Of a stretch of 64,000 bases of DNA, positions 42,534-64,000 are shown one piece after another. Every line of letters starts with the position of its first letter. Position 1 is the stretch's first letter. The stretch is from sequence record NC_052660.1; one strand, 5' to 3'. The translations under genes and the position numbers were made by a program. Source of the DNA: Escherichia phage tuntematon. The notes below the pieces were generated by a model. It did not search any database, was not told the DNA's origin, and worked only from the letters and a program-made list of their open reading frames with translations.

Positions 42534-43642
42534 CAAGTCCATTTTTAAAAGCAGCTACTGGTGGTCAGAAGAAGCCTGAAATGAGCGTATTTGCTGCAAC
42601 AACAGATGCAAGTAAATCTGTATTCGCTCCAAGCGTGTTAGATGCCAGTCCTGTTTATGCACCAGCGGCACCGCAAGAAGTTCCAGTTTTGCCTTCTATG
42701 ACCCGACAAGAGATCGAAGAGATTGGGGCAGAGGCAGGAACAACCTTGCGTTCCTTGAATGCCGAGGTATTAAAACATCAACGTAGTAATCAAGGCGATC
42801 AGATGAGTGAACGACTCACAGCTTTGATTAAACAGGCAAAACAACTTGATCCAAACTCTATTAAACAAAGCAAGGGTATTACTAAACTCATTAAAAAAGT
42901 TATGGGTATGAAAGAAGACCTGTTTGGGGAGTTTGATAATGTTAATAACCGTATTGAAGAGTTGGTAAAGAACCTTCAAATGGATATTCGCAAAGAAGAA
43001 GATTCCTTGGTATATCTTGAAAAGCTACATCAAGCTATTGGACAGTATGCTGCAAGTTTGAACCGAGATATGCAGCTTCTAACAGCAACCTATGAAAAAG
43101 AAGAACAAGCTTTGGCTGCTCTTCCAGAAGATGCAGTAGAACAGCGACAAGTGATCCGAGATACTTTGGATCTTCTGGAGATTCGTATTGCAGATTTAAA
43201 AGCATTGCGCCTACTGTGTGTCCAAATGGGACCGCGTGTACAAGGTATGCAAAAAGTTTCTGCAAGCTTAATGCGATCTGCGCGTAACATAGTAAATAAT
43301 GTTATTCCTGCTTACTCTGCTAACTTCTCAATGTATATCGAGAGCTTACGTCAAATGAAAGCAGCAGAGACGCAGAATAACGTTCTTGATGAATTTAACC
43401 TGGCAATTAAACTGGGTAGCGATCTTGCCACACAGAATCAGATCGAAGCAGCAGCACTGGCTAACCGTCAAGTGTTGGATATTGAAACTCTGCGTCACGA
43501 TCAGGAAAACTTGGTTAAGATGTTGGAAGAAACTAACCGCATCAATACGGAAGCCCGTGCTGCTCGTGTTGATTATATTAATGAAGTTCAATCTCTGGAA
43601 GACGGGATGGTAGCTGCTGTGAAACGAGGGCTTGGTAAATGA
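42530..43642 (+). CDS. TelA-like (toxic anion resistance family) coiled-coil protein
   Basis: 370-aa mostly helical protein of TelA-like size, sitting between TerC and TerD genes; family call is tentative. Confidence 0.45.
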   Translation: MTSPFLKAATGGQKKPEMSVFAATTDASKSVFAPSVLDASPVYAPAAPQEVPVLPSMTRQEIEEIGAEAGTTLRSLNAEVLKHQRSNQGDQMSERLTALIKQAKQLDPNSIKQSKGITKLIKKVMGMKEDLFGEFDNVNNRIEELVKNLQMDIRKEEDSLVYLEKLHQAIGQYAASLNRDMQLLTATYEKEEQALAALPEDAVEQRQVIRDTLDLLEIRIADLKALRLLCVQMGPRVQGMQKVSASLMRSARNIVNNVIPAYSANFSMYIESLRQMKAAETQNNVLDEFNLAIKLGSDLATQNQIEAAALANRQVLDIETLRHDQENLVKMLEETNRINTEARAARVDYINEVQSLEDGMVAAVKRGLGK

Positions 43643-48446: not shown

Positions 48447-48462
48447 TATAACGGAGGGGAGA

Positions 48463-49026
48463 ATGATTTATTATATTACTCCCTATCTGACAGGAAATAT
48501 CGGCAAGGCTATCAATGAAGCCATTGCCGTTCTTCCAGATGATAGTTGGGTGTGTTTAAGAGATACCGATACAATGTTCCTCCTACCTGATCAACCATCT
48601 ATGCTTGAAGAGCTTGTTATGTCAAACCCGCCTTTTGATGTAATAGGTGCAACTTGTAACAGGTTAGGCAGTGGTTATCAGCTTTTCTCTAACCAAATTA
48701 ACGATGATCCAGATATTCTAAACCATATAGAATATGCTAAGATTGCAAGAGAATATCATAAAGTAAATGTTGAAGAAGTTCCTTTCGGAACACCTCTGGC
48801 AGGTTTCTTTTTGCTTTTTAGAAAATCATTGTGGAATGAAATTCCTTTTGAAGAAAAATCTATCCAATTCGACTTAATTTTCTCTCGCACTTTACATGAA
48901 AAAGGAAAGAGGTTAGGATTGATGCGGGGAATGTATCTGTTTCACATTTACAGATTAGGTCAAACAAATCCTCAACGGTCTATACATCATTTATTACACT
49001 GTCATGATCACAGTAAAACTATTTAG
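48463..49026 (+). CDS. putative glycosyltransferase-like protein
   Basis: DxD-type acidic motif CLRDTDTMF; weak call. Confidence 0.4.
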   Translation: MIYYITPYLTGNIGKAINEAIAVLPDDSWVCLRDTDTMFLLPDQPSMLEELVMSNPPFDVIGATCNRLGSGYQLFSNQINDDPDILNHIEYAKIAREYHKVNVEEVPFGTPLAGFFLLFRKSLWNEIPFEEKSIQFDLIFSRTLHEKGKRLGLMRGMYLFHIYRLGQTNPQRSIHHLLHCHDHSKTI

Positions 49027-49034
49027 GAGAGAAA

Positions 49035-49718
49035 ATGGAAAATATTAAAATCGGAGTGGGTGTTATCACTGTAGGTGTCCGTCCACTTAAAGACTACCTT
49101 GTAACAGATCCACGTGCAGATTTTCGAGTATTCAACGATCCAGATCGTAAAGGTGTAGCTTATGCCAGGAATGAACTTATGCACCAGTTTTATGAAGAAG
49201 GTTATGATTATTGGTTTATTTTTGACGACGATTGCTACCCAGTCATGGAGGGATGGGAAACATATTTTGTAGATCAAGCTGTCTCTGGAGGATGGGATTT
49301 CTTTGGTATGCCGGAGTACTTCAAAGATAAAGTTGTTGGAAGCAAAGGAGAAGTTATTCTCTGGGAACTTGCAATGTGTCAATTTGCAATGTATTCTCGT
49401 GCTGTTGTTGAGAAGATGGGTTATTTCCGTCCTTACACTCACGGTTATGGTTTTGAAGATGCTGAATGGGGACACCGTTTGCAAGCTGCTGGTTTGAATC
49501 ATGGTATTCAGGCAACACCTTGTCCACTTCGTATCATGGCTTATATCCACCCAGACGATGTTTTTGGAAACAATCCTATGCCTTTTGCTAACCTGACAAA
49601 AGAAGAGAAAGAGGCTGCTATTGGGATTAACTGGGAAGAATATAAAGCATCTTTAGAGGATATTAAAAATGGGAAAATCCGAATTTCCTATGAGGAGGCA
49701 CTAGCACATGTCAAATAA
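49035..49718 (+). CDS. glycosyltransferase, GT-A fold (family 2-like)
   Basis: FIFDDDCYP and YGFEDAEWGHR resemble GT2 signature blocks. Confidence 0.6.
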   Translation: MENIKIGVGVITVGVRPLKDYLVTDPRADFRVFNDPDRKGVAYARNELMHQFYEEGYDYWFIFDDDCYPVMEGWETYFVDQAVSGGWDFFGMPEYFKDKVVGSKGEVILWELAMCQFAMYSRAVVEKMGYFRPYTHGYGFEDAEWGHRLQAAGLNHGIQATPCPLRIMAYIHPDDVFGNNPMPFANLTKEEKEAAIGINWEEYKASLEDIKNGKIRISYEEALAHVK

Positions 49719-50655
49719 AAAATGGTCTAAACTAAAAATTGATGCAAAACCTCACAGCGGTTGTGACTATCATCGTATTGTTATACCATTTAACAACAAT
49801 AATATTCAACCTAAGAAAGATGTTGTTGTGTTTAACCGTATCCACTCTAAAGGTGCAGAATACGTTTTATCTTTGAAACGTCAAGGTGTTAAGGTTGTTG
49901 TAGACTTAGATGATTTTTACCAACTTAATCCAGAACATTATTTAGCAAGCCTATACGAGTCAAACACTCATGCTATTGTAGCTATGGTTAAGCTTGCTGA
50001 TGTGGTTATTGTGACTACGGAATATTTGGCATATAAGATCCGTCACTTAAATAGGAATGTTGTTGTGATCCGAAATGCACTTCCTTTTGATAGCGGACAA
50101 TTCACTTTGTCAAATGATCGTTCATCCGGTACCCCTGTTGTATGGGCTGGCGGTGCTAGTCACGAACCAGACTTACGACTAGTCTCTAATACTTTCGATG
50201 ATGAACTTCTTACTATTGCGGGATATGAAGCATCACAAAGCATCACGGGACAAGAGTGGATTAAGATTCGCAGAAATTTACCAAATGCCAAATATAAAGC
50301 CGCTGTAAAAGATTTAGATAATTACATGAGTGTTTACGAAAGTCATGCTATTGCTATAGCTCCTTTGGTAGATAATGATTTTAATAATTGTAAAAGTAAT
50401 CTCAAAATCCTGGAAGCTGGAGCAAAAGGTATTCCAATTGTTTGTTCTAAGGTATTACCTTATTTTAACCCTGTAGATGCTCGCGCTGTTGCTTACGCAG
50501 AGAATAAAGCAGAATGGCATTACGAAATTGTTAAGCTTCTTCGCAATCCAAACTATCGGGAAGATCGTGGCTTGTTCTTGGCTGAACATGTTCGAACACA
50601 TTATAATCTGGCAGATGCAAACGAGTTGCGACGCCAGGTTATTGAAAGTTTGTAG
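49708..50655 (+). CDS. glycosyltransferase, GT-B fold, paralog 1
   Basis: C-terminal SNLKILEAGAKGIPIVCS resembles GT-B nucleotide-sugar site; paralog of 50663..51607. Confidence 0.5.
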   Translation: MSNKKWSKLKIDAKPHSGCDYHRIVIPFNNNNIQPKKDVVVFNRIHSKGAEYVLSLKRQGVKVVVDLDDFYQLNPEHYLASLYESNTHAIVAMVKLADVVIVTTEYLAYKIRHLNRNVVVIRNALPFDSGQFTLSNDRSSGTPVVWAGGASHEPDLRLVSNTFDDELLTIAGYEASQSITGQEWIKIRRNLPNAKYKAAVKDLDNYMSVYESHAIAIAPLVDNDFNNCKSNLKILEAGAKGIPIVCSKVLPYFNPVDARAVAYAENKAEWHYEIVKLLRNPNYREDRGLFLAEHVRTHYNLADANELRRQVIESL

Positions 50656-50662
50656 GTGAAGT

Positions 50663-51607
50663 ATGGGACAAATAATTCTTGACAATCGTAACGGAATCAA
50701 TTATAGTGTCTGCGATTTCCATAGGGTAGTGCTGCCTTACTCAAGGCAGTTCTCTTCACAACCTAAACACAACGTTTTCGTTTTTAACGGAGTGCCAACA
50801 AAAGGTAAAGAGGGCTTTTTAGCCCTTAAAAACCTAGGCTTTAAAATGGTTATGGATTTGGATGACTCTTTAGTTATTCCAAAAGGACACATGTTAGAAG
50901 GTATTTTTGAATCAGGTATTCGTGAACATTTAAAATGGTTTTTAGAGCACAGCGATCTTGTTACAACTACGACACCTGCTTTGCAAGTTGAACTTTCACA
51001 ATACAATGATAATGTGCACATAATCCCTAATGGTCTTCCTTACGATGAAGGTCAATTTGTGTTGACCCGTGATCGCTACTCCAAAACTCCATTAGTCTGG
51101 GCTGGAAGTGAAACACATAAACAAGATTTGGCTATCTTGCCCGATTTTGGTAAAAATCTTACAATATGTGGTTTTCGTAGGGATTCTGAAGTTTTAAGTA
51201 GTCGTGAATGGTCTGTGATCAGAGAAAATGTAGCACCAACTTGTGTTTATGAAGGTGTAAGACCATATGCCAACTACATGGAATCTTACGATGGTCATCA
51301 AATCAGTCTTGCGCCATTGCTTGATAACGTGTTTAATAATGCAAAAAGCAATCTTAAAATTCTTGAGGCAGGTGCTAAGGGTTTACCTTTGATCTGTTCT
51401 CCTCGTGAGAATTATCATACACAAGAGTTTAAAGATTTGTTATTCTTTGCTGAAACACCTTCCGAGTGGAAAGATATTACGGAATACTTATTAAGTGCTC
51501 CCGATGTTTGCATGGAGAAAGGATTAGCATTAGCTAAGTATGTCAGGACTCATTATCACATTGATGTGTTGAATGAGCGTCGTAGACTTTTATTTGAGGA
51601 GCTATAA
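50663..51607 (+). CDS. glycosyltransferase, GT-B fold, paralog 2
   Basis: SNLKILEAGAKGLPLICS; collinear similarity to 49708..50655. Confidence 0.5.
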   Translation: MGQIILDNRNGINYSVCDFHRVVLPYSRQFSSQPKHNVFVFNGVPTKGKEGFLALKNLGFKMVMDLDDSLVIPKGHMLEGIFESGIREHLKWFLEHSDLVTTTTPALQVELSQYNDNVHIIPNGLPYDEGQFVLTRDRYSKTPLVWAGSETHKQDLAILPDFGKNLTICGFRRDSEVLSSREWSVIRENVAPTCVYEGVRPYANYMESYDGHQISLAPLLDNVFNNAKSNLKILEAGAKGLPLICSPRENYHTQEFKDLLFFAETPSEWKDITEYLLSAPDVCMEKGLALAKYVRTHYHIDVLNERRRLLFEEL

Positions 51608-51885
51608 TGATTAACACTTTTGATTTTGAATACACCACTCGTAACGGGAAAGCCTTAGTCGTGGAGGTGGATTACTATTATGAAGAGCCTAACCCGCTTT
51701 CTCGTGAAAGTGATTGGGATTACCACGGAGGGCTTTTAATCGACGGTATTCGTTTTTATGAAGGCTCTACAGAAGTTTTTGAAAAAGATTTAAATGTAAC
51801 TGTAGCAGAAATTGCTTTCCAATTTAGAAAGCACATGGAAGAACTAGAAGCAGAATATATGATGGAGACTAACGAACCATTTTAA
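51607..51885 (+). CDS. hypothetical protein
   Basis: ORF-track ORF, ATGA overlap. Confidence 0.5.
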   Translation: MINTFDFEYTTRNGKALVVEVDYYYEEPNPLSRESDWDYHGGLLIDGIRFYEGSTEVFEKDLNVTVAEIAFQFRKHMEELEAEYMMETNEPF

Positions 51886-51897
51886 CAGGAGAACAAA

Positions 51898-53676
51898 GTG
51901 TCGCACATTATAACTAAATATGGATTTGATGTTGATCTTAGCAAGGAAGGGCATACAGGTTGTCCGCGCTGCATGAAAAATGGCAAGGATCGCTCTCGTA
52001 ATAACCTGATGGTTTATGGATTAGATTCTAATGGAGAGCATAAAGGTGCTAAGTGCTTTGCGTGTGAATACACTATTCCTAGCGTAGAATGGTTACGAGA
52101 AAATGGTGAAGTTTTAGAAGAAGAGGAGGAGATTGTGGGTTCGGAATTTAATAAACAGATTCATCGTAAAATTGTTCAAGAAACATCAACCAACCCACGT
52201 GGTTATCGAGGCATTAAAGAAAAAGTTTCATCTTTCTATGGTGTTCGTTATGAATACCGTCAGGAAGGGGATCAGATGGTAGTAGAAAGTTGTTTATATC
52301 CAACTACTATCGGTAAAGAGTTGGTTGGTTTTAAGCGTCGTATTCATCCTAAAGATTTCAGTAAACCTATTGGTCAAGTAGGTAAAGATGTAGATCTTTT
52401 TGGACAAATTCGTTTTGCAGACCGTTCTCATACTGTGGTAATTACAGGTGGTGAACACGATGCTCTGGCAGCTTATCAAATGCTGTCTGAAAACTTGGAC
52501 AACAAATATGAACTTCCAGCAGTAGTTAGTGGCACAACTGGTGAAACCAGTATGTATAAACAAGTTCAGGCACAATATCCTTTCTTTGAAAAATTTAAGA
52601 AGATTATTGTTTGCATGGATAATGACAAAGCTGGTAATGAGGCATTTGAAAATATTGTTAAGGTGCTGCCTCGTAACAAAGTCTACCGTATGCAGATGGA
52701 TCTTAAGGATGCCAATCAGTATCTGGAAGAAGGTCGTGCAAAAGATTTCGTAAAAGCTTTTTGGAGTGCTCGTCTATACACCCCAGCAGGTGTTTATGCT
52801 TCTAATGTCTTGTATGAAGCTGCATTAGAATGCTTGGAATCCAAGATGATTACCTTGCCTCCTTTTATGCGTGTTGCTGCAAATATGCTGGGTGGTGGTT
52901 TAGTAGAGGAAGAGATTACAGTTATCCTGGCAAAGACCAGTATCGGTAAAACTTTGATGGTGAACGAGATCACCAAACATATTATTGTTGCGCACCCAGA
53001 ACATACCCTAGGTATTCTGTCCTTGGAAGCAACTTATAAGAAATATTCTCGTAACCTGTTGTCCTCGTTCCTGCATATTCCTCTACACAGGAAAACACCG
53101 GAAGAGAAATTTCAAATCTTGGAAGAGAATAAAGAAAAAATCCTAGATTTTTACGAAAGAGAAGATGGATCACCACGTTTTTATGTGTGTGATGATCGTG
53201 GAGCAGATGTGGAGTCTATCAAAGAAAAAGTTTTGGAGATGATCATCTATTTTGGAGTAACAATTCTTGTTATCGACCCTTATTCTGATTTGCTTTCTGG
53301 TATGGATGTTCAAGCCCAGGAAGAGTTAGCAACATGGTTGAAGCGCATCATGAAAGAGTATGCTATAACCATTATCGTCATCTCACACGTTAAGAAGTCG
53401 GCTAATGGTGGCAATGAACACTTAACAGAGGACGATGCAATGGGTAGTAGTTTCTTGGCTAAAGGTGCTGGTATTACCTTGGCTTTGGAACGAGATAAAG
53501 CCGCTGAAGACCCTGTAGAACGCAATACGACTCATTGCTTTATCCTAAAAAACCGTGAGTTCTCGGAAACTGGTCCGGCAGGGCAGTTTTACTATGACAT
53601 TAGAACTGCAACTCTGCATGACAAAGAGCAGTATTTCAACAATCCTGCTAATTTGCCTACGGATAGCAACTATTAA
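51898..53676 (+). CDS. T7 gp4-type DNA primase-helicase
   Basis: Zn ribbon CPRC...CFAC, TOPRIM block VVITGGEHDALA...CMDNDKAGNEAF...DLKDANQY (compare T7 gp4), Walker A KTSIGKT; GTG start. Confidence 0.85.
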   Translation: MSHIITKYGFDVDLSKEGHTGCPRCMKNGKDRSRNNLMVYGLDSNGEHKGAKCFACEYTIPSVEWLRENGEVLEEEEEIVGSEFNKQIHRKIVQETSTNPRGYRGIKEKVSSFYGVRYEYRQEGDQMVVESCLYPTTIGKELVGFKRRIHPKDFSKPIGQVGKDVDLFGQIRFADRSHTVVITGGEHDALAAYQMLSENLDNKYELPAVVSGTTGETSMYKQVQAQYPFFEKFKKIIVCMDNDKAGNEAFENIVKVLPRNKVYRMQMDLKDANQYLEEGRAKDFVKAFWSARLYTPAGVYASNVLYEAALECLESKMITLPPFMRVAANMLGGGLVEEEITVILAKTSIGKTLMVNEITKHIIVAHPEHTLGILSLEATYKKYSRNLLSSFLHIPLHRKTPEEKFQILEENKEKILDFYEREDGSPRFYVCDDRGADVESIKEKVLEMIIYFGVTILVIDPYSDLLSGMDVQAQEELATWLKRIMKEYAITIIVISHVKKSANGGNEHLTEDDAMGSSFLAKGAGITLALERDKAAEDPVERNTTHCFILKNREFSETGPAGQFYYDIRTATLHDKEQYFNNPANLPTDSNY

Positions 53677-54209: not shown

Positions 54210-55004
54210 TTGAGCAAGTTGAATACACTTGATCAATATTACACTAACCCCGCTTATGCGGGGTTCTTATGTGATAAGATCAAAGAAATTTTTGGAGAGG
54301 AAGCTAACTACGTAGAACCATCTGCGGGAGAAGGAGCTTTCTCTTTTTGTTTTAAAAACATAACTTCTTTTGATATTGACCCTAAGTTTGAAGATTGTAT
54401 TGAGGCAGATTTTTTAGCTCAATCTGTTGAGTCTGTTGGCAGTGTAACTGCTTTTGTCGGTAATCCTCCGTTTGGAAAAAATGCCAGTCTTGCCATTAAG
54501 TTCTTTAACCATTGTGCTGAAATGTTGGATAACGAAGGTGGTATTTGTTTTATCTTGCCTCGCACATTTCAAAAAATCTTTTTTGCACACAAACTAAATC
54601 CCCACATGCATCTTCTTTACGAAGAAGAATGTCCAAAAGGATCTTTTATTCTTCATGGAGAACCTTGGGATGTTCCTTGTGTATTCCAGATATGGATTAA
54701 ACGCAACGAGAAGCGTTCTCCCGTTGTTTTAGGAGAGAATCGACTGTTCGTATTAGGTAACAGTAAAGACTACGATATAGCCGTTAGGAGAGCGGGAGCA
54801 AGTGCAGGTAAAGTGTTATCAGAAGAAGATTCTTTATCTGAAGCATCTACCTACTTTTTAAAAGCCTTGACTTCTGATCTTAAAACACGTATCATTGAGG
54901 CTTACCCGTTACTTAAAGCTGAAGCTAGTAAAACTGCGGGAGTAAGAAGTTTAAGTTTAAAAGAACTTCAGTGGGTTCTGGAGAACATTAGAAAGGAGGA
55001 ATAG
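54210..55004 (+). CDS. N6-adenine DNA methyltransferase (orphan)
   Basis: QYYTNP motif, SAM-binding EPSAGEGAF, catalytic GNPPFGK; TTG start behind GGAGGA. Confidence 0.7.
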   Translation: MSKLNTLDQYYTNPAYAGFLCDKIKEIFGEEANYVEPSAGEGAFSFCFKNITSFDIDPKFEDCIEADFLAQSVESVGSVTAFVGNPPFGKNASLAIKFFNHCAEMLDNEGGICFILPRTFQKIFFAHKLNPHMHLLYEEECPKGSFILHGEPWDVPCVFQIWIKRNEKRSPVVLGENRLFVLGNSKDYDIAVRRAGASAGKVLSEEDSLSEASTYFLKALTSDLKTRIIEAYPLLKAEASKTAGVRSLSLKELQWVLENIRKEE

Positions 55005-57601
55005 TGAGTAAGTTTACATGGGATATTGAAGCAAACGGATTGTTGAATAATGACACTATTGATTATTTAGCTAGTCCTTATCGTCTCAAAGACACATTTC
55101 AAATGCACTGTATTGTCTTAGAGAACCATGAAACAGGAGAAATAGTAGCTTTCCACGATGGCCCTAAATACATCTTTGATGGGCGTCCTTATGAAGAGTC
55201 AGATGGTAAATACACATATGTTCTTAAAGAGTATGTGGCGCAAGATTACACACATTTTCAACTAAAAGATTTCCCAGATTTTATTAATCATGAAGGTTAT
55301 TTTAAAGACAAGCCTGAATATCTGGTTGAAATGGCTGTGGCTCACAACGGTATCAACTACGACTGGTTGGCTACAAAACTGTTTTATGGATTAGATTACA
55401 GTGTTAAATATAATACGTGGGGCAAAAATAAGGTAAAACTTATTGACTCCTTGATTTTGAGTAAAGTGTTAAACCCAGATCGAAAGATTGAGGGCAAATC
55501 AGGACATAGCTTGGCAGCACTTTCTCGAAAAGCAGGTGGTGATGTAAAAATAGATTTCCGTAAAGAGATTCCAGAAGAAGATCGATTTAAGACTTTTGCT
55601 GCGGATATGCTTTATTACTGTATCTATGACAACAAAGCCAATACGAGCGTATATAATTACCTTATGGAAGAATGGGGTGATTATGATAAATGGGAAGGTC
55701 CATTTGAACTTGAACAACGTGTAGCAGACATTATTACACGTCAGGAACACCGTGGATTTGCTTTTAACATGAAACAAGCAGAAGAGAACCTTGCTTTTTT
55801 GGATGCAGAAATGGAGCGTCTTCGTTTACTCGTTGAGCCTATTTTGCCACCTAAACCAGCAACAAAAGGTTATCTTAAGGCTTTTATTCCACCTAAGTTG
55901 CAAATTAAAAAGAACTTAGAGCCAACTAACCATATGATCAATTTTGCTAAGAAACATGATGGTCATTTGGAAGAGAGGGATGGCGATTGGTGGTTAGTTA
56001 TGTTGGGGAAAGAGTGGAAACTGCCAGTTGCAGCAGATGAACCTCTATGTGATCCTAACATTCCTGCAACATTGAACGATACAACCCATATTAAAAACTG
56101 GCTTGTAGGATTAGGTTGGGTACCATCTGAATATAAAGATAAAGACTTGACTCTTAAATCTGGCACCAAGATTAAAAAGAGCGAGGAAGAACTTCAGAAA
56201 GGTATTCGAGCTTACGTTGAGCAAACTCTATCTTCTAATTTTTGTCAGGATCGTTGTGATCATCTGGAGTGCACACCGGAAACCCTGGAAAGGAAGATTC
56301 AAGAGCGTATAGCAAAAGGTAAAGGTCGCGGTCTTAAAGTATTGACTAACCCATGTTTTACCAAAGGTCAGGAAAAAGAAATTTGTCCTAACCTGCAAGC
56401 TTTGGGTGAGAAGTTTCCTTATGCTACACAGATTGTAGAATACTTAACGTATAAGCATCGTAGGAACTCTATTTTAGGTGGCGGTGCTGATTGGGAAGAA
56501 GATGAAGAAGATCAAGAATACGATAAAGGTTTCTTAGCCGCAGTAAGGGCGGATGGGCGTATTCCTACCCCAGCCGCTACATGTGATGCTGCAACCTCTC
56601 GTATGAAGCATAGATCTGTAGCTAATATTCCTCGTGTCACATCTTTGTTTGGATGGGAGATGCGTAACTTGTTTGGTGTAGAGGTTCCTAAATACTTCCA
56701 GATCGGCTACGATTTCGACTCTTTGGAAGCAAAAATTGAATCACACTACTGTTGGCGGTACGAGCCGGAGCCACACGAATATTGTAACGCTCTGTTGTTA
56801 GAGAAACCTAACGATGTTCACACAATGATGGCAAAACGTATCACTGAAACTATTGGACGTAAATTTGAACGTAGTCCTGCTAAATCTGTTAAGTATGGTA
56901 TTACCTATGGTGCACAAGCCGACAAGGTTGCTAAAACAATTGGTAGCGATAAGTTTACAGGTCAATTGGTGTTTGATGCTTTCTGGGAAGCTGCATTCCC
57001 ATTGGCGCGTCTTAAAGAACGTTTAAACGATTTCTGGGTTAAGACTGGTAAACAATATGTTTTGGGTATTGACGGTCGTAAGGTTCCTACTCGTTCTGCT
57101 CACGCGATTCTTAACTCTCTATTCCAAAGCGGCGGGGTTATCTGTGCTAAACGTGCAATGGTTATTTATGACGACATGATCGAAGAAGAAGGGCTAAGTG
57201 TTGACTTCTTTAAAGATGACTGGAAGAATAAAGACTTCGTGCAACAAATGATCGCATATCACGATGAAGCCCAGCTTGAAGTTTCTCGTAACCTTGTAGA
57301 ATTTAAATGGTTTTCACCTGAATCATTAGGTTGGAAGAAAGTAGACGATCCTGAAGAACAAAAGAAAATTGATAAAGAATGCCTTGCTAAAGTTGAAGAA
57401 TGGAAGCATAATAAGGAAAAAGAGACGGGACAAATTTGGGCTAACATTCATGAATCTCCCAAAGGTGGATGGTTTACAGCCTATAGTCGGGCAGGTGAAC
57501 TTGCTGCTTTAGCTGTTACTAAGGCTGGAGAATTTTACAATCTTAATGTTCAGCTTACTGCCGGATATGATGTGGGTAACTCCTGGGCGTCCTGTCACTA
57601 G
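55004..57601 (+). CDS. family A DNA polymerase with 3'-5' exonuclease domain (T7 gp5-like)
   Basis: N-terminus FTWDIEANGLL...FHDGPKYIFDG parallels T7 gp5 IVSDIEANALL...FHNGHKYDVPA; 865 aa; GTG start overlapping MTase stop. Confidence 0.9.
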   Translation: MSKFTWDIEANGLLNNDTIDYLASPYRLKDTFQMHCIVLENHETGEIVAFHDGPKYIFDGRPYEESDGKYTYVLKEYVAQDYTHFQLKDFPDFINHEGYFKDKPEYLVEMAVAHNGINYDWLATKLFYGLDYSVKYNTWGKNKVKLIDSLILSKVLNPDRKIEGKSGHSLAALSRKAGGDVKIDFRKEIPEEDRFKTFAADMLYYCIYDNKANTSVYNYLMEEWGDYDKWEGPFELEQRVADIITRQEHRGFAFNMKQAEENLAFLDAEMERLRLLVEPILPPKPATKGYLKAFIPPKLQIKKNLEPTNHMINFAKKHDGHLEERDGDWWLVMLGKEWKLPVAADEPLCDPNIPATLNDTTHIKNWLVGLGWVPSEYKDKDLTLKSGTKIKKSEEELQKGIRAYVEQTLSSNFCQDRCDHLECTPETLERKIQERIAKGKGRGLKVLTNPCFTKGQEKEICPNLQALGEKFPYATQIVEYLTYKHRRNSILGGGADWEEDEEDQEYDKGFLAAVRADGRIPTPAATCDAATSRMKHRSVANIPRVTSLFGWEMRNLFGVEVPKYFQIGYDFDSLEAKIESHYCWRYEPEPHEYCNALLLEKPNDVHTMMAKRITETIGRKFERSPAKSVKYGITYGAQADKVAKTIGSDKFTGQLVFDAFWEAAFPLARLKERLNDFWVKTGKQYVLGIDGRKVPTRSAHAILNSLFQSGGVICAKRAMVIYDDMIEEEGLSVDFFKDDWKNKDFVQQMIAYHDEAQLEVSRNLVEFKWFSPESLGWKKVDDPEEQKKIDKECLAKVEEWKHNKEKETGQIWANIHESPKGGWFTAYSRAGELAALAVTKAGEFYNLNVQLTAGYDVGNSWASCH

Positions 57602-57618
57602 TTAACTCATTGTTTTAT

Positions 57619-57640
57619 AAGGGGCTTCTGCCCCTTTATA
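57619..57640 (+). terminator. rho-independent terminator
   Basis: aaggggc-ttct-gcccctt then TATA. Confidence 0.7.
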
Positions 57641-57649
57641 GGAGGAGAT

Positions 57650-57841
57650 ATGCATTACGATTTAGATTGTCTTGGTATGCCTTACCTACCAGATGAATTT
57701 GAAGGTGAAGAAGAACGTGAATGGGACGATGGGGATATCCGTTGTTGGTCTTGTGGTAAAGATATGTCTTATGAACAACATATGCACAATGATGGTTTCT
57801 GCATACATTGTTATAATGAAATTGATCTGGAGGAAGATTAA
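57650..57841 (+). CDS. small zinc-ribbon protein
   Basis: CWSCG...CIHCYN; RBS GGAGGAG. Confidence 0.5.
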   Translation: MHYDLDCLGMPYLPDEFEGEEEREWDDGDIRCWSCGKDMSYEQHMHNDGFCIHCYNEIDLEED

Positions 57842-58008
57842 TGGGAAATGGTATCATGATTTGCTATAAAATTGTGCGTATTGTCGGAGACGAAGTTACC
57901 ACTCGGTATTTTATGATAGAGTCTCAAGCCGATGAGGTTTACAATGACTGGCTTGAAAAAGGTGGATACGATTTTGTATCTAAAGAAACTTTCCGTTTAG
58001 AGGTATAA
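57841..58008 (+). CDS. candidate 55-aa protein
   Basis: Hand-translated MGNGIMICYKIVRIVGDEVTTRYFMIESQADEVYNDWLEKGGYDFVSKETFRLEV; TAATG overlap; not in ORF track. Confidence 0.4.
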   Translation: MGNGIMICYKIVRIVGDEVTTRYFMIESQADEVYNDWLEKGGYDFVSKETFRLEV

Positions 58009-58018
58009 GGAGAAAACA

Positions 58019-58237
58019 ATGCGTAAACTAGTGAGCTTTAATGTTTCAATTCTTATTGATGAACAAAATGAAGATGTTATTAAAGGTCTTGCAAATAAGA
58101 TTGCAGGTGGAATGACGGAAGCTGAAGTGTGGGAAGAATGTGCTCGACTTTATGAGGAAGGTGTTATTGAGGTCTTGGGGGATGAGATTAATATGGACGA
58201 TGTTGTAAAAGTAACTGTGGAGCGTATCAATGACTAA
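58019..58237 (+). CDS. hypothetical protein
   Basis: ORF-track ORF; RBS TAAGGAG. Confidence 0.5.
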   Translation: MRKLVSFNVSILIDEQNEDVIKGLANKIAGGMTEAEVWEECARLYEEGVIEVLGDEINMDDVVKVTVERIND

Positions 58238-58823
58238 ATCAAAACAAATCAATATTGCCAAAGAAATTCTTACCGTATTAAAGATCGCTGATCCTAATTC
58301 TGTCTTGGCTGGCGGTGCTGTTCGTGATTGGCGTATTCTTGATATTGCTGGACGTGATCTGGATTTCTATACATCCCTTCCTGCACATCGGACTGAAGAA
58401 CAAATACAAGGATTAATTGCATCTGCTTTAATGGGAACCAATATTCGTAAACTAGGAAACAAAGAGGCTTCTGACAATTATGAAGGTGTTACTGGTCTTA
58501 AACACGTTTTTGAGTTTGAACGTGATGGTCAGCTTTGCAACCTTATGATTATGGAACCAAGCGTAATGACAACCTTTCTAAATGAGTTCGATCTGTCCAT
58601 CTGCCAGGCTGCATTTGATGGGAAGGACTGTTATTATTCTAAAGATTTTGAAACAACCTTGGAAACAGGGATCTGCTTCTTGCACAAAGATGTTAGAGAA
58701 GATGCCAAACACGTTATTAAAATTGCTACACGTTTCCCATATCTTCGTTTTGTGAAAGAGGTTAAGGTTCCACGTCCACCTCAAGTAGATACCAGATTGG
58801 AAGAAGATGATATTCCTTGGTAA
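58230..58823 (+). CDS. Pol-beta-superfamily nucleotidyltransferase (CCA-adding-enzyme head-like) with SSB-like acidic tail
   Basis: AGGAVRDWRILDIAGRDLDFY matches GGxVRD...DxD nucleotidyltransferase motif; C-terminus EEDDIPW. Confidence 0.55.
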   Translation: MTKSKQINIAKEILTVLKIADPNSVLAGGAVRDWRILDIAGRDLDFYTSLPAHRTEEQIQGLIASALMGTNIRKLGNKEASDNYEGVTGLKHVFEFERDGQLCNLMIMEPSVMTTFLNEFDLSICQAAFDGKDCYYSKDFETTLETGICFLHKDVREDAKHVIKIATRFPYLRFVKEVKVPRPPQVDTRLEEDDIPW

Positions 58824-58830
58824 TTAAAGC

Positions 58831-58860
58831 TTGACAATATTAAACATTTTATGATAGGAT
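58831..58860 (+). promoter_or_regulatory. sigma70-like promoter
   Basis: TTGACA 58831-58836, 18-nt spacer, TAGGAT 58855-58860. Confidence 0.5.
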
Positions 58861-58868
58861 AGCATTCA

Positions 58869-59261
58869 ATGACTGAACGTTCTAAGATAGCTGTTGAAAC
58901 TGTTTATGGAAACTATACCAGTTTGACACTAGTTGAGAAAAATGTTGTAGGTCTTGACAACTCTTTTTATTTTCAAATTTTGGTTATTCAAGGTGGAAAC
59001 AAGAAGCTAACTGCTCGTGTTGAAACATCTGAAATAATTGAAACCACTGTTACAAACAAAGAATTCATTTCACTGCAAGATACAATCCGAAACGTTATAG
59101 ACGAAGAAGGCAAAGCTGCCACAATTAAACTCGGAGGTTTCCCAGTGCAAATAGTTCATTTTCCTAATGGTGAAATTGGAGTTGGAATAGGTAAAGGTAA
59201 ATACCTGTTAGAGCAAGATGATATGGAAAGACTCCGCTCTTTCTGTGCAAAATTAATGTAA
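58869..59261 (+). CDS. hypothetical protein
   Basis: ORF-track ORF. Confidence 0.55.
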   Translation: MTERSKIAVETVYGNYTSLTLVEKNVVGLDNSFYFQILVIQGGNKKLTARVETSEIIETTVTNKEFISLQDTIRNVIDEEGKAATIKLGGFPVQIVHFPNGEIGVGIGKGKYLLEQDDMERLRSFCAKLM

Positions 59262-59277
59262 TGTAGAGGAGATAATA

Positions 59278-60165
59278 ATGTCCGTAATTAATACTGAAAC
59301 TGATCGTAAAGGCAAAACTGTAACTTATGCAACTGGTATCGTAGACTACGTTAAACTGGATAAATTCGCTGAACCTAAAACTTTTCATTGGGAAGGAAAA
59401 ACGATTGTTTCAACTCACCGAGCTTCTCTTGTTCTGAAAGAGAAAGGTGCTAAACCAGATGAGAAAGGTGTTTGGATTTCTCTTGGTGACATTGAACTGA
59501 AAGAAGGTTATGAAAACCTACAAGTCAAAGAAGGTGATAACTGGATCACTATTGAAAAAGGTGTAGAAGTAAGTATTGATATTGATCGCGTTGATAATAA
59601 AGGCGGTAAAACTTACTACAATACTAAAAAATCTCGTATTACAGTATTGTCTACCGATGGTGTTCAGAAGTCTAACAAATCTTCTGGCAATAAGGGGTCC
59701 AACGATGCGGCTCCTAAACAATCCTATAAAAAACGTGATACTGTAGGTCTGGAAACTGGTCACGCAGTAAATGGTGCACTGGAACTGATTCGTAATGGTG
59801 TTAAAGGTGATGCTTTCGATATCGCTGGGGTTGTTCAATCTGCAACTGTCACACTGAAATCGGAAATTGCTGAATCTCGTGGCGTTGATATTAATGATTA
59901 TGATCTTGGGGCATCTGTTGGTCACGCTATCCTCAATGCTTGTAAAGACCATACCATTAAGACTGTATCTGTAGAAGATCTGATTGATTCTGCTCGTAAA
60001 GTTCTGGCTCTGTCTGATAAAGTTGCTGCTGCCATTCGTGGTTCCGCAGAACAACCTAAGAAAGAAGAGAAGAAAGAAGTTAAGAAACCTGAACCACAAC
60101 CAGAACCAACTCCAAGTAATCAAGAAGAACCTCCAATGGACTTCGACGATGATATTCCATTCTGA
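59278..60165 (+). CDS. ssb: single-stranded DNA-binding protein
   Basis: C-terminus MDFDDDIPF is identical to the E. coli SSB C-terminal tip as I recall it; acidic/Pro-rich linker; next to replication genes. Confidence 0.6.
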   Translation: MSVINTETDRKGKTVTYATGIVDYVKLDKFAEPKTFHWEGKTIVSTHRASLVLKEKGAKPDEKGVWISLGDIELKEGYENLQVKEGDNWITIEKGVEVSIDIDRVDNKGGKTYYNTKKSRITVLSTDGVQKSNKSSGNKGSNDAAPKQSYKKRDTVGLETGHAVNGALELIRNGVKGDAFDIAGVVQSATVTLKSEIAESRGVDINDYDLGASVGHAILNACKDHTIKTVSVEDLIDSARKVLALSDKVAAAIRGSAEQPKKEEKKEVKKPEPQPEPTPSNQEEPPMDFDDDIPF

Positions 60166-60193
60166 TCTTATTGATTTATAAAGAGTTTTTATA

Positions 60194-60224
60194 AAAGAAA
60201 GGAGCCATTTGGCTCCTTTTCTTA
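60194..60224. terminator. bidirectional rho-independent terminator between convergent genes
   Basis: ggagcc-attt-ggctcc flanked by A-run (left) and T-run (right). Confidence 0.75.
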
Positions 60225-62894
60225 TTTATAATTGGAAGGAATGTTGTTATAATCTGAAAGTTTTGTGCAATACCTGAATAGGTAACTATTAGCTACTCCG
60301 CCTAATGTATTTGTTAATGTTGTTCCTGTTCCTGTAAGATTTGTGCATCCACTAAAGAAAGAAGATAATGCTCCACGTTTACCACAAACAGTTAACCCTG
60401 GGTTGTCATTAAAGATTTTATTAAAATCTGTAAGTGCTAAACAACCTTGGAATGTAGCTGTTAAAGAGGTCACTTTCGTTGGAATATTATCAAACATTCC
60501 TGCTGGAACTTCTGCAAGAGAGGTGCAATCTTTAAAGGTGTAAGAATATCTTGTAACTTTTGATAGATTCTTAAATAAATCTGAAGGAATAGATGTTAAA
60601 GATGTACAACCTTCAAACGTGCTTGACATTGTTGTCAGCGAAGGAAATAAAGCATCACTGAATAATCCTTCAGGGATAGCTGTCAAACTTGTACAGCCAG
60701 AGAAGATACCACTTATAGATGTTCCGGTGTAAGATGTGTTACTAAAACAATCAGAAGTTATTCGTCTTAAGTTAGCACAACCTTTTAAGAATTGTGAGGC
60801 TGGGCTTGTAGAATAACCAATTCTGTTGCCGCCCCATAATTCTAAAAGATTTGGATTTGCTTCCATAGACACATCAACACTATTCACTACTGAAGCACTT
60901 GCAAATTCAATAGCCAGTCTATATTCTCCTGTTGGATAACTATCCACTGTAGAGAAAGCTTTATTTCTAAATATTACTTTATTTGAAGGTATTACAACGT
61001 CATCCACCTTAACTACAAAGTTAGCTGGTGTGACAGTACCCGATAAAATTGGGAACGTAATTGCCCCATCTGCCGAGTGGTTGAAATATCCGTTTAGAAC
61101 CGTTAAGCTACTACTAGGAGATGGAGCTAACTCCTTTCCCGCAACAGCATTCACCGTTAAATAAGAACTATCAGAAGCGGTAACAACACCTTGATACGTA
61201 GCTGTGCAACCAATCCTACAACCACCATCACCAACACCAGTTATTACACCAGTTGTAGGATCTACTGTAGCAACATTAGGATCTGTAGTTGTATACTCAA
61301 CAACCATACCAGGTAAGCTTGCTGCCCCTGTTGGCGTTATTTCTGCTACCATTGTTTGTGTTGTTCCTACATCCATTGCAGATAAGCTAGGGGTGTAAAC
61401 GCTCAATGTTGAAGCATATCCTCCAGAGGTATCTGATAAAGTTGTTCCTTCAGCGTTTAAGGCTGTCATACCTGCATCAAAACCACCTTCTGCATGGAAA
61501 GTCATTAAACCAGTAGATGATATTGTCATGTTTGCAGGGGCAGAAGAAGTGTATTTAATATCGAAAAGTTTACCTCCTTCTGGGCTAACAGAATGTGTCA
61601 ACTGTTTAGTTCCACCTACAATACAAATTCCTAAAGAATCTGTAGTTAAGCCAGTTGCCAGAATATCACCCGTAATCACGGAGCTTGCTATTGGTGTGAA
61701 TTTATTATAGTTTAGACCACTATTGAACAGATACGAGGCTTTCCCATCTTTCCAAATACCGGAATAATACATATCTCCATTATAAACGAAAAAGGTTCCT
61801 TGATAACCTAATTGGTTAGTAACATCCATATTCAGCGTATGAACGCTTGTGAGCTTGTTTATATCCCAAGAACCCACTCCTTCAGGTTTAACTGGTTTCC
61901 CCACTTGGAGTGGATCTCCGCTCGCAGAATCATACCCCAAACCTAAGTTTGCAGTGTAGTTCTTACCAATAGCCCACAAGGAATTATTGATCCCAACGAA
62001 AAAAGAGTGGCGGCTTGGTGGAAACTTCCATGTTGAGAAACCTGCTGCAAAGGTATCCAGTTTAGTGTAGGTTGTTTCTGTATTAGATCTAACATATAAG
62101 TAGTTTACTGTACCCGTGCCACCGGAGGTATCTCCTACAACTATTGTCTGGGAAACTGTATTGATGTAATCTTTGACATACACTGTTTCAGTAGCGGATA
62201 TCTTGGCATTGACAAAAGCTGTTGTTGTGTTATTATTACCTGCTAAACCTTTACTAGCTCCACAAACACGCAAGGTTCCCACATTGTTGACATAAGAGCA
62301 TTGGTTGTAACCTGCATCAAAAGCAACTGCTGCACTTGTTATCTGACGAGGAGTAGAAACTTCGTTAGTAGTACTTGCACCTAAACTACCTACTGTGTTT
62401 TGACCTGATCCATAAAGAACACCACTATTCATTAACCAGAGAGTGTTATTATATCCTCCCTTAACCTCTTTAAGATTAGCTAAAGAGATAGTCCCTGTTA
62501 TTACAGATGGAAAGCTGGTCCAAGTAGTTACACATGCGTCCGTACCACCTGCTGCTATAGATCCTACCAATCCTGCTGTCAATCCTGAATATTGCCATCC
62601 ACCACTGTTAGTTTTAATAACAAAACAACGATCTGCGGTAAACACATCCGCTACTACAGTAGAAGCTAAGTGGAAATTATTGAATCGTGCACTACGAGTT
62701 CCATCTGCAATCTCACCAAAGAGGTTTGCGCCTTGAGTAAACAATCTACCATCATTAAGCAAAATTGCTAAACTGCTGTTAGAATTACCAGCATTATCTG
62801 GGTAATCTAAAGCGATTACTTTTTTAACAATACCTGCTGGCAGAGGAACGACACCAGTGCTGGTCATAATAGTAAATATTGGAATTGGAAACAT
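60222..62894 (-). CDS. tail fibre / receptor-binding protein with C-terminal LRR-like repeats
   Basis: 890 aa; C-terminal repeats GCTSLTAIPEGLF, EGCTSLTSIPSDLF, KDCTSLAEVPAGMF, QGCLALTDF resemble BspA-type leucine-rich repeats; Gly/Thr/Ser-rich body. Confidence 0.65.
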   Translation of the reverse strand: MFPIPIFTIMTSTGVVPLPAGIVKKVIALDYPDNAGNSNSSLAILLNDGRLFTQGANLFGEIADGTRSARFNNFHLASTVVADVFTADRCFVIKTNSGGWQYSGLTAGLVGSIAAGGTDACVTTWTSFPSVITGTISLANLKEVKGGYNNTLWLMNSGVLYGSGQNTVGSLGASTTNEVSTPRQITSAAVAFDAGYNQCSYVNNVGTLRVCGASKGLAGNNNTTTAFVNAKISATETVYVKDYINTVSQTIVVGDTSGGTGTVNYLYVRSNTETTYTKLDTFAAGFSTWKFPPSRHSFFVGINNSLWAIGKNYTANLGLGYDSASGDPLQVGKPVKPEGVGSWDINKLTSVHTLNMDVTNQLGYQGTFFVYNGDMYYSGIWKDGKASYLFNSGLNYNKFTPIASSVITGDILATGLTTDSLGICIVGGTKQLTHSVSPEGGKLFDIKYTSSAPANMTISSTGLMTFHAEGGFDAGMTALNAEGTTLSDTSGGYASTLSVYTPSLSAMDVGTTQTMVAEITPTGAASLPGMVVEYTTTDPNVATVDPTTGVITGVGDGGCRIGCTATYQGVVTASDSSYLTVNAVAGKELAPSPSSSLTVLNGYFNHSADGAITFPILSGTVTPANFVVKVDDVVIPSNKVIFRNKAFSTVDSYPTGEYRLAIEFASASVVNSVDVSMEANPNLLELWGGNRIGYSTSPASQFLKGCANLRRITSDCFSNTSYTGTSISGIFSGCTSLTAIPEGLFSDALFPSLTTMSSTFEGCTSLTSIPSDLFKNLSKVTRYSYTFKDCTSLAEVPAGMFDNIPTKVTSLTATFQGCLALTDFNKIFNDNPGLTVCGKRGALSSFFSGCTNLTGTGTTLTNTLGGVANSYLFRYCTKLSDYNNIPSNYK

Positions 62895-62905
62895 TTAAAC
62901 CCTCC

Positions 62906-62931
62906 ATAAAAAGAAAGCCCCTTTCGGGGCT
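62906..62931 (-). terminator. terminator or attenuator between tail-fibre genes
   Basis: gcccc-tttc-ggggc followed on minus strand by TTTCTTTTTAT, then RBS GGAGGG. Confidence 0.6.
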
Positions 62932-62935
62932 TCTG

Positions 62936-64000
62936 TTATCGTGTTACAACAACCATGTCCACGATATCACCCACACCAGGATACGTTAATTGCAAAATTG
63001 TTACTGCGTTAGCAGTAGTTGCTATTTCTGTATCATTTAGTGCTCCATAAGACGCATCTAGTGTAACCGTGTGTCCCGTTGTATCTTGAATCAAATAAAT
63101 CATTGCTGAAAACGCTTTAGGTTTTGTAGAGCCAGTGACACCAGGCCATGCTCCAACTGTCAGAGCGTCAGTTACTGTAACAACATACATATTGGAAGTT
63201 CCAGAAGGAGTCCAAGATGCTCCAGAGTTGGCAGTAGTTGTTTCAAGTTCCATGAAACCTGCTGTAACTTTAGTTGGTGTTATAGCTTCCGTAGGATCTG
63301 ATCCTGATATTTCGATCCAGTTTCCATCAGAACGACCATACGTCAAGCCGTCTTGAGGGGCTTCTGGTATACTAGGAAGAGTTCCTATAAGTGTCCACGT
63401 AGAAGAATCTGTTTTCTTAAACACTGCTCCAGTGGTAGTATTGAAGGCGTAATCATTGATAACACCGTCTCCTGCGACTGGATTAGTTGTTGCTACAAAC
63501 CATTGTGCGCCGTCCTTACCGTTGGTCCCATTAGTACCATTGGTTCCGTTTGCTCCTGGATCACCTTTCTCACCTTTATCTCCCTTCTCGCCTTTGTCAC
63601 CTTTAATACTCCCCATGTCAACAAAAGATGCGGAATTGGTGTCTTGATCATAAGTATAGATGTAAAGATTACTGGTGTCTTCAGTTAAATAAGCATCGCC
63701 ATAGTTATTATAAACGGGGAGAGCTTCTCCATTTGCAACATGACCTTTAGCTGTAATAGATCTACCACCCAAACTACCCACATTGAGCCACGTTTGATTG
63801 TCGTCGATCCACACGTAAAGGTCATTTTTTACAATGTAGGCATCACCAACCTCCGCTACAGACGGTAGTTCTGAAACATCTGACAATTCGCCATTTACAG
63901 AAAGACCTGCACCAACCGGACCTTGGATACCTTGAACACCCTGTTCACCTTGTGGACCAGGATCTCCCTTATCTCCTTTGTCCCCCTTCTCTCCTTTTAA
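62936..64000 (-). CDS. collagen-like tail-fibre protein, 5' end beyond window
   Basis: Gly-X-Y repeats GDKGEKGDKGEKGDPGANGTNGTNGTNGKDG; frame stays open through 63887-64000 (KGEKGDKGDKGDPGPQGEQGVQGIQGPVGAG), so ORF-track start at 63886 (a TTG) is not the true start. Confidence 0.75.
   Translation of the reverse strand, partial: LKGEKGDKGDKGDPGPQGEQGVQGIQGPVGAGLSVNGELSDVSELPSVAEVGDAYIVKNDLYVWIDDNQTWLNVGSLGGRSITAKGHVANGEALPVYNNYGDAYLTEDTSNLYIYTYDQDTNSASFVDMGSIKGDKGEKGDKGEKGDPGANGTNGTNGTNGKDGAQWFVATTNPVAGDGVINDYAFNTTTGAVFKKTDSSTWTLIGTLPSIPEAPQDGLTYGRSDGNWIEISGSDPTEAITPTKVTAGFMELETTTANSGASWTPSGTSNMYVVTVTDALTVGAWPGVTGSTKPKAFSAMIYLIQDTTGHTVTLDASYGALNDTEIATTANAVTILQLTYPGVGDIVDMVVVTR

Follow-up and report, generated by a model that had tools for sequence, protein, structure and literature searches.

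An SSB-type C-terminal tip on a small phage nucleotidyltransferase suggests docking in a T7-type replication module

Introduction

The C-terminal tip of SSB, the protein that binds single-stranded DNA, is a hub for the recruitment of bacterial genome-maintenance proteins, and it is also an antibiotic-target interface. The acidic tails of E. coli SSB, T7 gp2.5 and Hfq also act on their own domains. The present work concerns a nucleotidyltransferase (NTase) gene and a nearby SSB-like gene in a 64,000-nucleotide stretch of Escherichia phage tuntematon (NC_052660.1), referred to here in full as the window. The original prediction, made from the sequence of this stretch, was that the NTase uses a mimic of the SSB tail to dock onto host or phage SSB-interaction pockets.

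Several described systems are close to this pair. In phage T7 the SSB gp2.5 and the helicase gp4 share an acidic, Phe-terminated tail for binding the T7 DNA polymerase gp5 (PMC12339929); that article cites PDB 6P7E for a DTDF peptide bound to the T7 polymerase. In the T7 genome gp2.5 ends in EDGDF and gp4 in NDTDF, both of which are acidic and Phe-terminated. On the enzyme side, the class II CCA-adding enzymes and bacterial poly(A) polymerase (PAP; PF01743) are among the closest known systems, together with the stand-alone head-domain protein 2la3. Another nucleotidyltransferase, Gad2, is an anti-Gabija protein of about 400 amino acids (aa) (bioRxiv 10.1101/2023.05.01.538930; Pfam PF26128). 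The literature searched contains no mention of DDIPW, of a non-SSB protein with an SSB tip, or of the NTase family found here.

Results and Discussion

Two proteins with an SSB-type end

The NTase carries the motif AGGAVRDW...DLDFY at residues 27-47 and ends in ...TRLEEDDIPW, and the SSB-like open reading frame (ORF) ends in ...EEPPMDFDDDIPF. The translations confirm both ends that had been predicted, EEDDIPW and DFDDDIPF. Over its final 12 residues, EPPMDFDDDIPF, the SSB-like protein is identical at 12 of 12 positions to the E. coli SSB C-terminus (1eqq_A and 7f2n_A, by phmmer), so the resemblance to the E. coli tip noted earlier is exact. The NTase gene also lies two genes upstream of the SSB-like gene as stated, with one 130-aa ORF between them (Table 1). 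Stop-to-stop ORFs of 50 aa or more, taken from both strands of the window, were scanned with the pattern [DE][DE]x(0-1)[ILVM]P[FWY]. An acidic-[ILVM]-P-aromatic end was present in 2 of 437 ORFs, namely the NTase and the SSB-like protein. A back-of-envelope calculation from residue frequencies puts [DE]-D-I-P-[FW] at a protein end at roughly 1e-6 per protein. When set against the SSB C-terminal (SSB-Ct) consensus of three acidic residues followed by Ile-Pro-Phe, E-E-D-D-I-P-W fits everywhere except for Trp in place of the terminal Phe.

The reading preferred here is that an active, template-independent NTase may be tethered through its SSB-Ct-type tip to a site that the phage SSB-like protein also addresses, within a T7-type replisome. 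Drawing on sequence, on a predicted structure and on the analogy with T7, this reading is given about an even chance of being correct.

Conservation of the NTase tip

Ten distinct NTase homologs with 59-98% identity all end in DDIPW but one, which ends in DDSFPW. The 14 residues ahead of the tip vary among them in both sequence and length. Averaged over pairs of phAPEC8-like NTases, the core is 71% identical, against 30% for the linker and 92% for the five-residue tip, and synonymous changes are seen among the codons of the tip (GAT/GAC, CCT/CCG and, at the stop, TAA/TAG). The contrast between tip and linker, together with the synonymous changes, indicates that a short linear motif is under purifying selection at the protein level, and the conservation across homologs argues for more than chance. 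A DDIPW sequence under such selection at the end of a disordered, variable linker is the signature expected of a docking peptide.

Similar ends occur further away in the family. The homolog P0016 (35% identity) ends in PDDIPW, and its locus has the synteny of the window: primase/helicase, family A polymerase (PolA), small ORFs, NTase, a 129-aa protein and an SSB-like gene. Four further distant members have IP[FWY]-type tips (P0118 ...SNDIPW, P0159 ...DDGIPF, P0109 ...KPIPF and P0035 ...ESIPY). Tips of the form [ILVM]P[FWY] are found in 6 of 147 NTase-family representatives against 20 of 1671 background phage ORFs, a set that itself includes SSBs (odds ratio 3.5, p=0.015). The two DDIPW clades are not sisters in a neighbor-joining tree drawn without support values.

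The tip could also be a historical accident, either copied from the SSB 3' end or produced by drift, that has no function and is kept by phylogenetic inertia. The tip-coding DNA of the NTase and SSB-like genes does share GATGATATTCC, and most of the family has no such tail, with other tails in its place in sister clades. However, this 11-nt identity is as expected from codon usage for D-D-I-P and the flanking DNA is unrelated. The tip has stayed constant with synonymous substitutions while the linker diverged, it is kept at 35% core identity, and tips recur in at least five NTase lineages. A tip without function is therefore considered very improbable. Duplication of the SSB 3' end as the source of the NTase tip was considered separately and is not supported, the identity being at the level of codons.

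Fold and family of the enzyme

An exhaustive profile search for the NTase family gave 1034 representatives, and 89 members were aligned. The AlphaFold2 model built on the 89-sequence alignment has a predicted local distance difference test (pLDDT) score of 92 with a folded core at residues 1-178; it supersedes an earlier model from 13 sequences with a pLDDT of 62. The last approximately 20 residues are of low confidence, with a pLDDT of 57-72 and no secondary structure after residue 176. The modelled core has a nucleotidyltransferase fold and not an OB-fold, which would make the NTase a tip-bearing non-SSB protein. Residues G28, G29, W34, D43 and D45 are invariant in the 89 members, R32, Y84 and K164 are 98% conserved, D33 is 92% conserved, and there is an FP motif near residue 170. 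Since the catalytic residues are invariant, the NTase is probably active. The assignment of this protein to the Pol-beta superfamily is thus upheld, and it can be narrowed to a class II CCA/PAP-like enzyme with an intact catalytic motif.

The same small fold is present in BFVD models from many phages, including T7-like podophages, and all of these proteins are uncharacterised. By tblastn, 195 GenBank phages have a family member, among them Vibrio phage ICP1 (ORF223). The ICP1 member (L037 7001-7363; BFVD F1D1P7) is apparently truncated or split; it measures 122-137 aa, and the match covers two annotated hypothetical proteins.

GenBank records label the NTase as 'putative tRNA nucleotidyl transferase / poly(A) polymerase', and it could act as annotated, maturing or repairing the phage's tRNAs or tailing RNA, in which case the tail would be irrelevant. 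The predicted head-domain fold is that of class II PAP/CCA proteins with CCA-adding enzymes and PAP as the best structural matches, sequence profiles of CCA-adding enzymes (6ibp/7otr) match the NTase at catalytic motif A alone, and Phapecoctaviruses encode 10-11 tRNAs (PMC7862966, PMC10793346, PMC10698182). However, the NTase has 197 aa compared with about 370-450 aa for the structurally matched enzymes, lacks their neck, body and tail domains for tRNA binding, and contains no RRD (motif B) or EDxxR (motif D) string in its sequence. Its scores are below threshold for Pfam PF01743 (PolyA_pol; 13.9 against a cut-off of 23 bits) and for the NCBIfam CCA model TIGR02692 (12.6 against 438.8 bits). 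Among the 89 family members, 11 match PF01743 at E<0.01. The size, the absent domains and motifs, and the low scores suggest that the NTase is not a bona fide CCA-adding enzyme. In addition, no tRNA gene was found in the window, near the NTase gene or in phAPEC8 1-30 kb.

The genomic surroundings of the family also argue against a tRNA role. In 80 IMG/VR loci with a family member, a T7 gp4-like primase/helicase lies within 7 kb in 61 and a family A polymerase in 43; the gp4-like genes were called by phmmer matches to T7 gp4, and the window-like locus L011 is among the 80. Other family loci lie among nucleotide-metabolism genes (MazG, deoxynucleoside monophosphate kinase, thymidine kinase, NUDIX and ThyX), and the family is present in small T7-like phages. 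The association with primase/helicase and PolA suggests that the NTase family is an accessory of T7-type replication modules and not of tRNA clusters. Only a slim chance is therefore given to the annotated function.

Distribution of the tip among phage proteins

A pattern scan of IMG/VR for [DE]DDIPW followed by a stop found at least 120 viral loci (L092-L211). Among the matches listed, 119 ORFs with this end fall into at least 23 unrelated clusters. These include canonical SSBs (phrog_44, phrog_9002 and phrog_7364), a 601-aa DNA helicase (phrog_16, L116), proteins of phrog_862, phrog_21342 and phrog_3284, and several families without an assigned function. A 29-member unannotated family of about 195-220 aa ends in IEDDIPW, and a single NTase is present, again among the matches listed. 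In 4 of the 120 loci listed, the fetched stretch has a second tip-bearing ORF. Phage SSBs that end in DDDIPW show that an SSB can naturally end in Trp in place of Phe, and the presence of DDIPW on non-SSB proteins suggests that the tip acts as a portable module. The SSB-Ct pocket of DnaG binds indole-carboxylate fragments (PMC5872125), which makes a terminal Trp chemically plausible.

An intramolecular role for the tail would not need an outside partner. The acidic tail might fold back on the basic nucleic-acid-binding surface of the NTase and gate substrate access, with a convergent resemblance to the SSB tip. The tail is acidic, lies on a flexible linker and is modelled with low confidence. 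Clades differ in their acidic/hydrophobic tails (MDEI, EEFKI, DVFNF, WDEEF and FSDEW), as if a charge and a hydrophobic anchor sufficed. There are also analogies: the gp2.5 tail fills its own DNA-binding groove in models (PMC12339929), and autoinhibition by an acidic C-terminus is documented for Hfq (PMC5606850). However, the conservation of D-D-I-P-W at residue level, including Pro and Trp, over 35-100% identity exceeds what charge mimicry needs. That the same pentapeptide recurs on 23 or more unrelated folds speaks for a shared receptor outside the protein, and most NTase family members work without any tail. Intramolecular regulation by the tip is considered improbable.

Tails of the replication module

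The SSB-like protein and the NTase are not the only proteins of their module with an aromatic end. The T7 gp4-like primase/helicase ends in TDSNY, with the aromatic C-terminus kept in the relatives examined, and the 92-aa protein encoded ahead of it ends in TNEPF, with the terminal aromatic and nearby acidic residues kept in all five lineages. In locus L085 a gp2.5-like SSB (...DEDVPF) and a primase/helicase (...DDRVPF) share an IPF-like tip. Judged by their sequences, four proteins of the module (SSB-like, NTase, primase/helicase and 92-aa) may carry T7-like C-terminal tips. Similar tails on several proteins of one module suggest that the NTase-SSB pair fits a known design, in which replisome proteins are addressed to a common site.

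The tip could be directed at the host instead. It would then dock in pockets of the host SSB interactome (e.g. ExoI, RecQ, PriA or RNase HI) as a decoy or targeting peptide, either blocking them or delivering the NTase to modify a host protein or DNA end for an anti-host or anti-defence purpose. The complete identity of the neighbouring tip to that of host SSB suggests that this phage group addresses host-type pockets; DDIP[FW] also resembles the SSB-Ct consensus of bacteria more closely than it does the DxDF tails of the T7 type, and the tip occurs on many unrelated phage proteins without an assigned function. Some family members have faint or weak precomputed Pfam matches to Gad2, which direct hmmscan did not reproduce at E<=10. 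On the other side, the PADLOC defence models gave no match, the NTase family sits in replication modules and not in early or anti-defence gene clusters, and sister clades drop the NTase tip while the SSB tips stay the same. A host-directed decoy or targeting peptide is considered unlikely. Its more specific form, in which a DDIP[FW] label delivers nucleotidyl transfer to a host SSB-interacting protein or its nucleic-acid end, so that the NTase would be a targeted anti-host or anti-defence modifier and not a passive replisome accessory, is less likely still.

The identification of the NTase as Gad2 was rejected as unsupported. The direct hmmscan covered the window NTase and P0009, P0016, P0118, P0159, P0131 and P0081. 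A link through P0081, a family member of 400 aa, was likewise dropped, since it has no SPbeta-group homologs.

Observations that weigh against a shared docking site

Several results count against the reading that NTase and SSB-like protein are tethered to one site, and they concern both proteins. For the NTase, the tip is not general. About 96% of the family representatives lack such a tip, and the enrichment of the broader class 'acidic + terminal aromatic' in the family is not significant (odds ratio 2.1, p=0.06). Whether related phages lack the tip was a check proposed with the original prediction, and the outcome is divided: the tip is kept in phAPEC8-like homologs and in P0016, but syntenic relatives with 34-38% identity have other NTase tails (...EFMDEI, ...HWTDEI, ...NEEFKI and ...PDVFNF) while their SSB tip remains DFDDD[IV]PF. 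A constant SSB tip beside a variable NTase tip suggests that the latter is lineage-specific and does not co-vary with the former. Furthermore, the last residue of the NTase DDIPW tip is Trp and never Phe, and that of the SSB-like tip is Phe and never Trp; therefore, the two tips could address different sites.

The second group of results concerns the SSB-like protein. Outside the tail, its core has no match in Pfam, PHROG, NCBIfam or PDB by sequence or profile. Comparison by hhalign with T7 gp2.5 and with nine collected tip-bearing clusters, SSBs included, was negative, and a large homolog search found no SSB similarity beyond the tail. Some GenBank records annotate the protein as an SSB. The claim that the neighbour is an SSB thus holds for the tail and the gene position and does not extend to a detectable OB-fold homology; the SSB identity of the 295-aa protein is a putative one, based on its tail and its place in the replication module.

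The tip of the SSB-like protein is itself well kept, with DFDDD[IV]PF in orthologs down to 49% identity and an end of ...[IVLC]PF in most of 94 homologs. However, in about 16 of the 94 an extension of about 15 aa follows ...IPF, and the tip is then internal. A free-standing HNH homing-endonuclease gene is the source of this extension in the viable isolate Mt1B1_P17 and in locus L214; it is inserted precisely behind the Phe codon and replaces the stop. The same insertion is found in ZCKP1, nieznany and PsgM04F. The insert is about 511 bp, and the SSB-like protein becomes 310 aa long, ending in ...DFDDDIPFAPIGLQYGRNFLHCF. In these phages the SSB tip is buried and the NTase still ends in EEDDIPW. 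Viable isolates with a buried tip suggest that docking through a free carboxylate on the SSB tip may not be essential in this phage group. Docking by the phage SSB tip may be dispensable in the phages with the insertion; otherwise, host SSB may stand in for it or the extension may be removed. The conserved DNA that encodes the tip seems to be a homing site.

Proposed mechanism and significance

With these points taken into account, tethering of the NTase within a T7-type replisome remains the preferred reading, and it would proceed as follows. The NTase, a stand-alone Pol-beta-superfamily enzyme, would work with the phage replisome of gp4-like primase/helicase and PolA. The enzymes of the phAPEC8 lineage and, independently, those of a few other family lineages carry a predicted disordered linker of about 14 residues that ends in the SSB-Ct-type tip DDIPW. 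This tip would serve as a portable docking peptide, whose acidic residues, Ile-Pro and terminal aromatic with a free carboxylate could plug into a tip-binding site of the same class as that addressed by the DFDDDIPF tip of the SSB-like protein. Such a site could be located on proteins of the phage replisome (PolA or primase/helicase), on host SSB-interacting proteins, or on both. By analogy with T7 gp2.5/gp4, partners in the phage replisome are at least as strongly indicated as host SSB-interacting proteins. The tip would thereby tether nucleotidyl transfer at single-stranded DNA or replication-fork sites. The substrate is tentatively taken, with low confidence, to be the 3' end of a nucleic acid at the fork (DNA or an RNA primer) rather than a tRNA.

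If phage enzymes routinely carry the tip, it would be a general, sequence-recognisable route for inserting phage activities into the SSB hub or into the phages' own T7-like replisomes. It would also be a cheap bioinformatic handle for spotting replisome-associated phage proteins without an assigned function. In the case of the small NTase family, which is widespread in GenBank phages and present in ICP1, the tail offers a concrete, testable hypothesis on the site of action.

Gene map of the locus

The DNA is from a phAPEC8-like E. coli myophage (genus Phapecoctavirus, Stephanstirmvirinae), and positions 57600-60200 of the window are 98-99% identical to more than 60 sequenced isolates. The NTase-SSB pair is located at the 3' end of a long plus-strand operon for replication and nucleotide metabolism. 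The order of genes is 92-aa protein, gp4-like primase/helicase, methyltransferase, PolA, three small ORFs, NTase, 130-aa protein and SSB-like protein. No terminator-like site was found between the NTase and SSB genes. Orthologs of the primase/helicase have Toprim_2 and DnaB_C domains. The 130-aa protein is syntenic with the NTase and the SSB-like gene in all related clades and accompanies the SSB-like gene in 10 of 10 loci; no relative was detected in PDB, Pfam, NCBIfam or PADLOC. It could be a partner of either neighbouring gene product.

Table 1. Positions of the NTase, the SSB-like protein and associated features in the window (unless another record is named)
Feature	Position	Strand	Basis
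NTase, 197 aa, stand-alone class II CCA/PAP-type head domain (predicted)	58230..58823	+	ORF
NTase catalytic motif A AGGAVRDW...DLDFY, residues 27-47	58308..58370	+	Family alignment, profile match
NTase variable linker, predicted disordered, residues 179-192	58764..58805	+	pLDDT, identity, length variation
NTase SSB-Ct-like tip DDIPW, residues 193-197	58806..58820, stop 58821-58823	+	Conservation
Conserved 130-aa protein, no assigned function, between NTase and SSB-like gene	58869..59261	+	PHROG 16560
SSB-like protein, 295 aa: beta-rich N-terminal domain, conserved helical middle domain, low-complexity linker, SSB tip	59278..60165	+	ORF, alignment
EPPMDFDDDIPF, 12-residue tip of SSB-like protein	60127..60162	+	phmmer to 1eqq_A, 7f2n_A
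Bidirectional intrinsic-terminator-like hairpin, closes replication operon	60197..60220	.	Predicted
Family A DNA polymerase (PolA), 865 aa, candidate tail receptor	55004..57601	+	Pfam DNA_pol_A 1.4e-13, PHROG 17
T7 gp4-like primase/helicase, 592 aa, ends ...PTDSNY	51898..53676	+	NCBIfam DnaB and primase matches
92-aa protein ending ...ETNEPF	51607..51885	+	Terminal Phe and acidic residues kept, five lineages
HNH insertion site and copies	Window 60160-60190; L214 4905-5399; L215 (NC_052662) 1402-2800

The polymerase gene differs in length between relatives. PolA has 865 aa in the window and 1099-1189 aa or more in relatives (L007 6285-9584, L015 3027-6341 and L214 1-1740), and an extra ORF of 198 aa follows it in L006, L015 and L214. 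These differences suggest mobile insertions, by an intein or a homing endonuclease, in or beside the polymerase gene. Between PolA and the NTase, at 57650-57841, is a gene for a Cys-rich, zinc-ribbon-like protein of 63 aa whose C-terminus is acidic (...EIDLEED). Its orthologs are in the small-ORF cluster of L013 and L007, in the latter not directly after PolA.

Directly upstream of the primase/helicase and within the replication operon are four consecutive genes annotated as glycosyltransferases (about 48460-51610; phAPEC8 gp071-gp074). The sign of the GC skew and the coding strand both switch at about 24 kb and about 60 kb, which gives the blocks 1-24000, 24000-60200 and 60200-64000. The plus-strand block also holds TelA/TerD-like genes of the tellurite-resistance type (e.g. 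42530-43642).

Comparison with known systems

The enzyme family and the principle of the SSB tip are both of known kinds. Their combination, a Trp-terminated SSB-type tip on a nucleotidyltransferase that is one of at least 23 tip-bearing families, appears to be undescribed. Like the bacterial SSB-Ct (...MDFDDDIPF), the NTase tip is C-terminal and has an acidic run, Ile-Pro and a terminal aromatic residue with a free carboxylate behind a disordered, poorly conserved linker, and the exact E. coli 12-mer is present on the neighbouring phage SSB-like protein. It differs in that the tip is on a nucleotidyltransferase instead of an OB-fold protein and ends in Trp instead of Phe; the likeness is one of sequence.

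Compared with the class II CCA-adding enzymes and PAP, the NTase shares motif A (GGxVRD...DxD) and the predicted head-domain fold. It lacks the body and tail domains and the nucleotide-selecting EDxxR motif, and it has family-specific features in the invariant Trp34, the conserved Y84 and K164, and the FP motif. Gad2 is likewise a phage-encoded nucleotidyltransferase, and the precomputed PF26128 matches of some family members are a further point of contact; the NTase is about half as long (197 against about 400 aa) and has no direct profile match. As in T7, the module has a gp4-like primase/helicase and PolA, and at least two of its proteins have similar acidic, aromatic-ended tails. The second tail bearer here is an enzyme without a T7 counterpart, the tip has the bacterial IP[FW] form instead of DxDF, and the polymerase, which is the receptor in T7, is here a candidate receptor.

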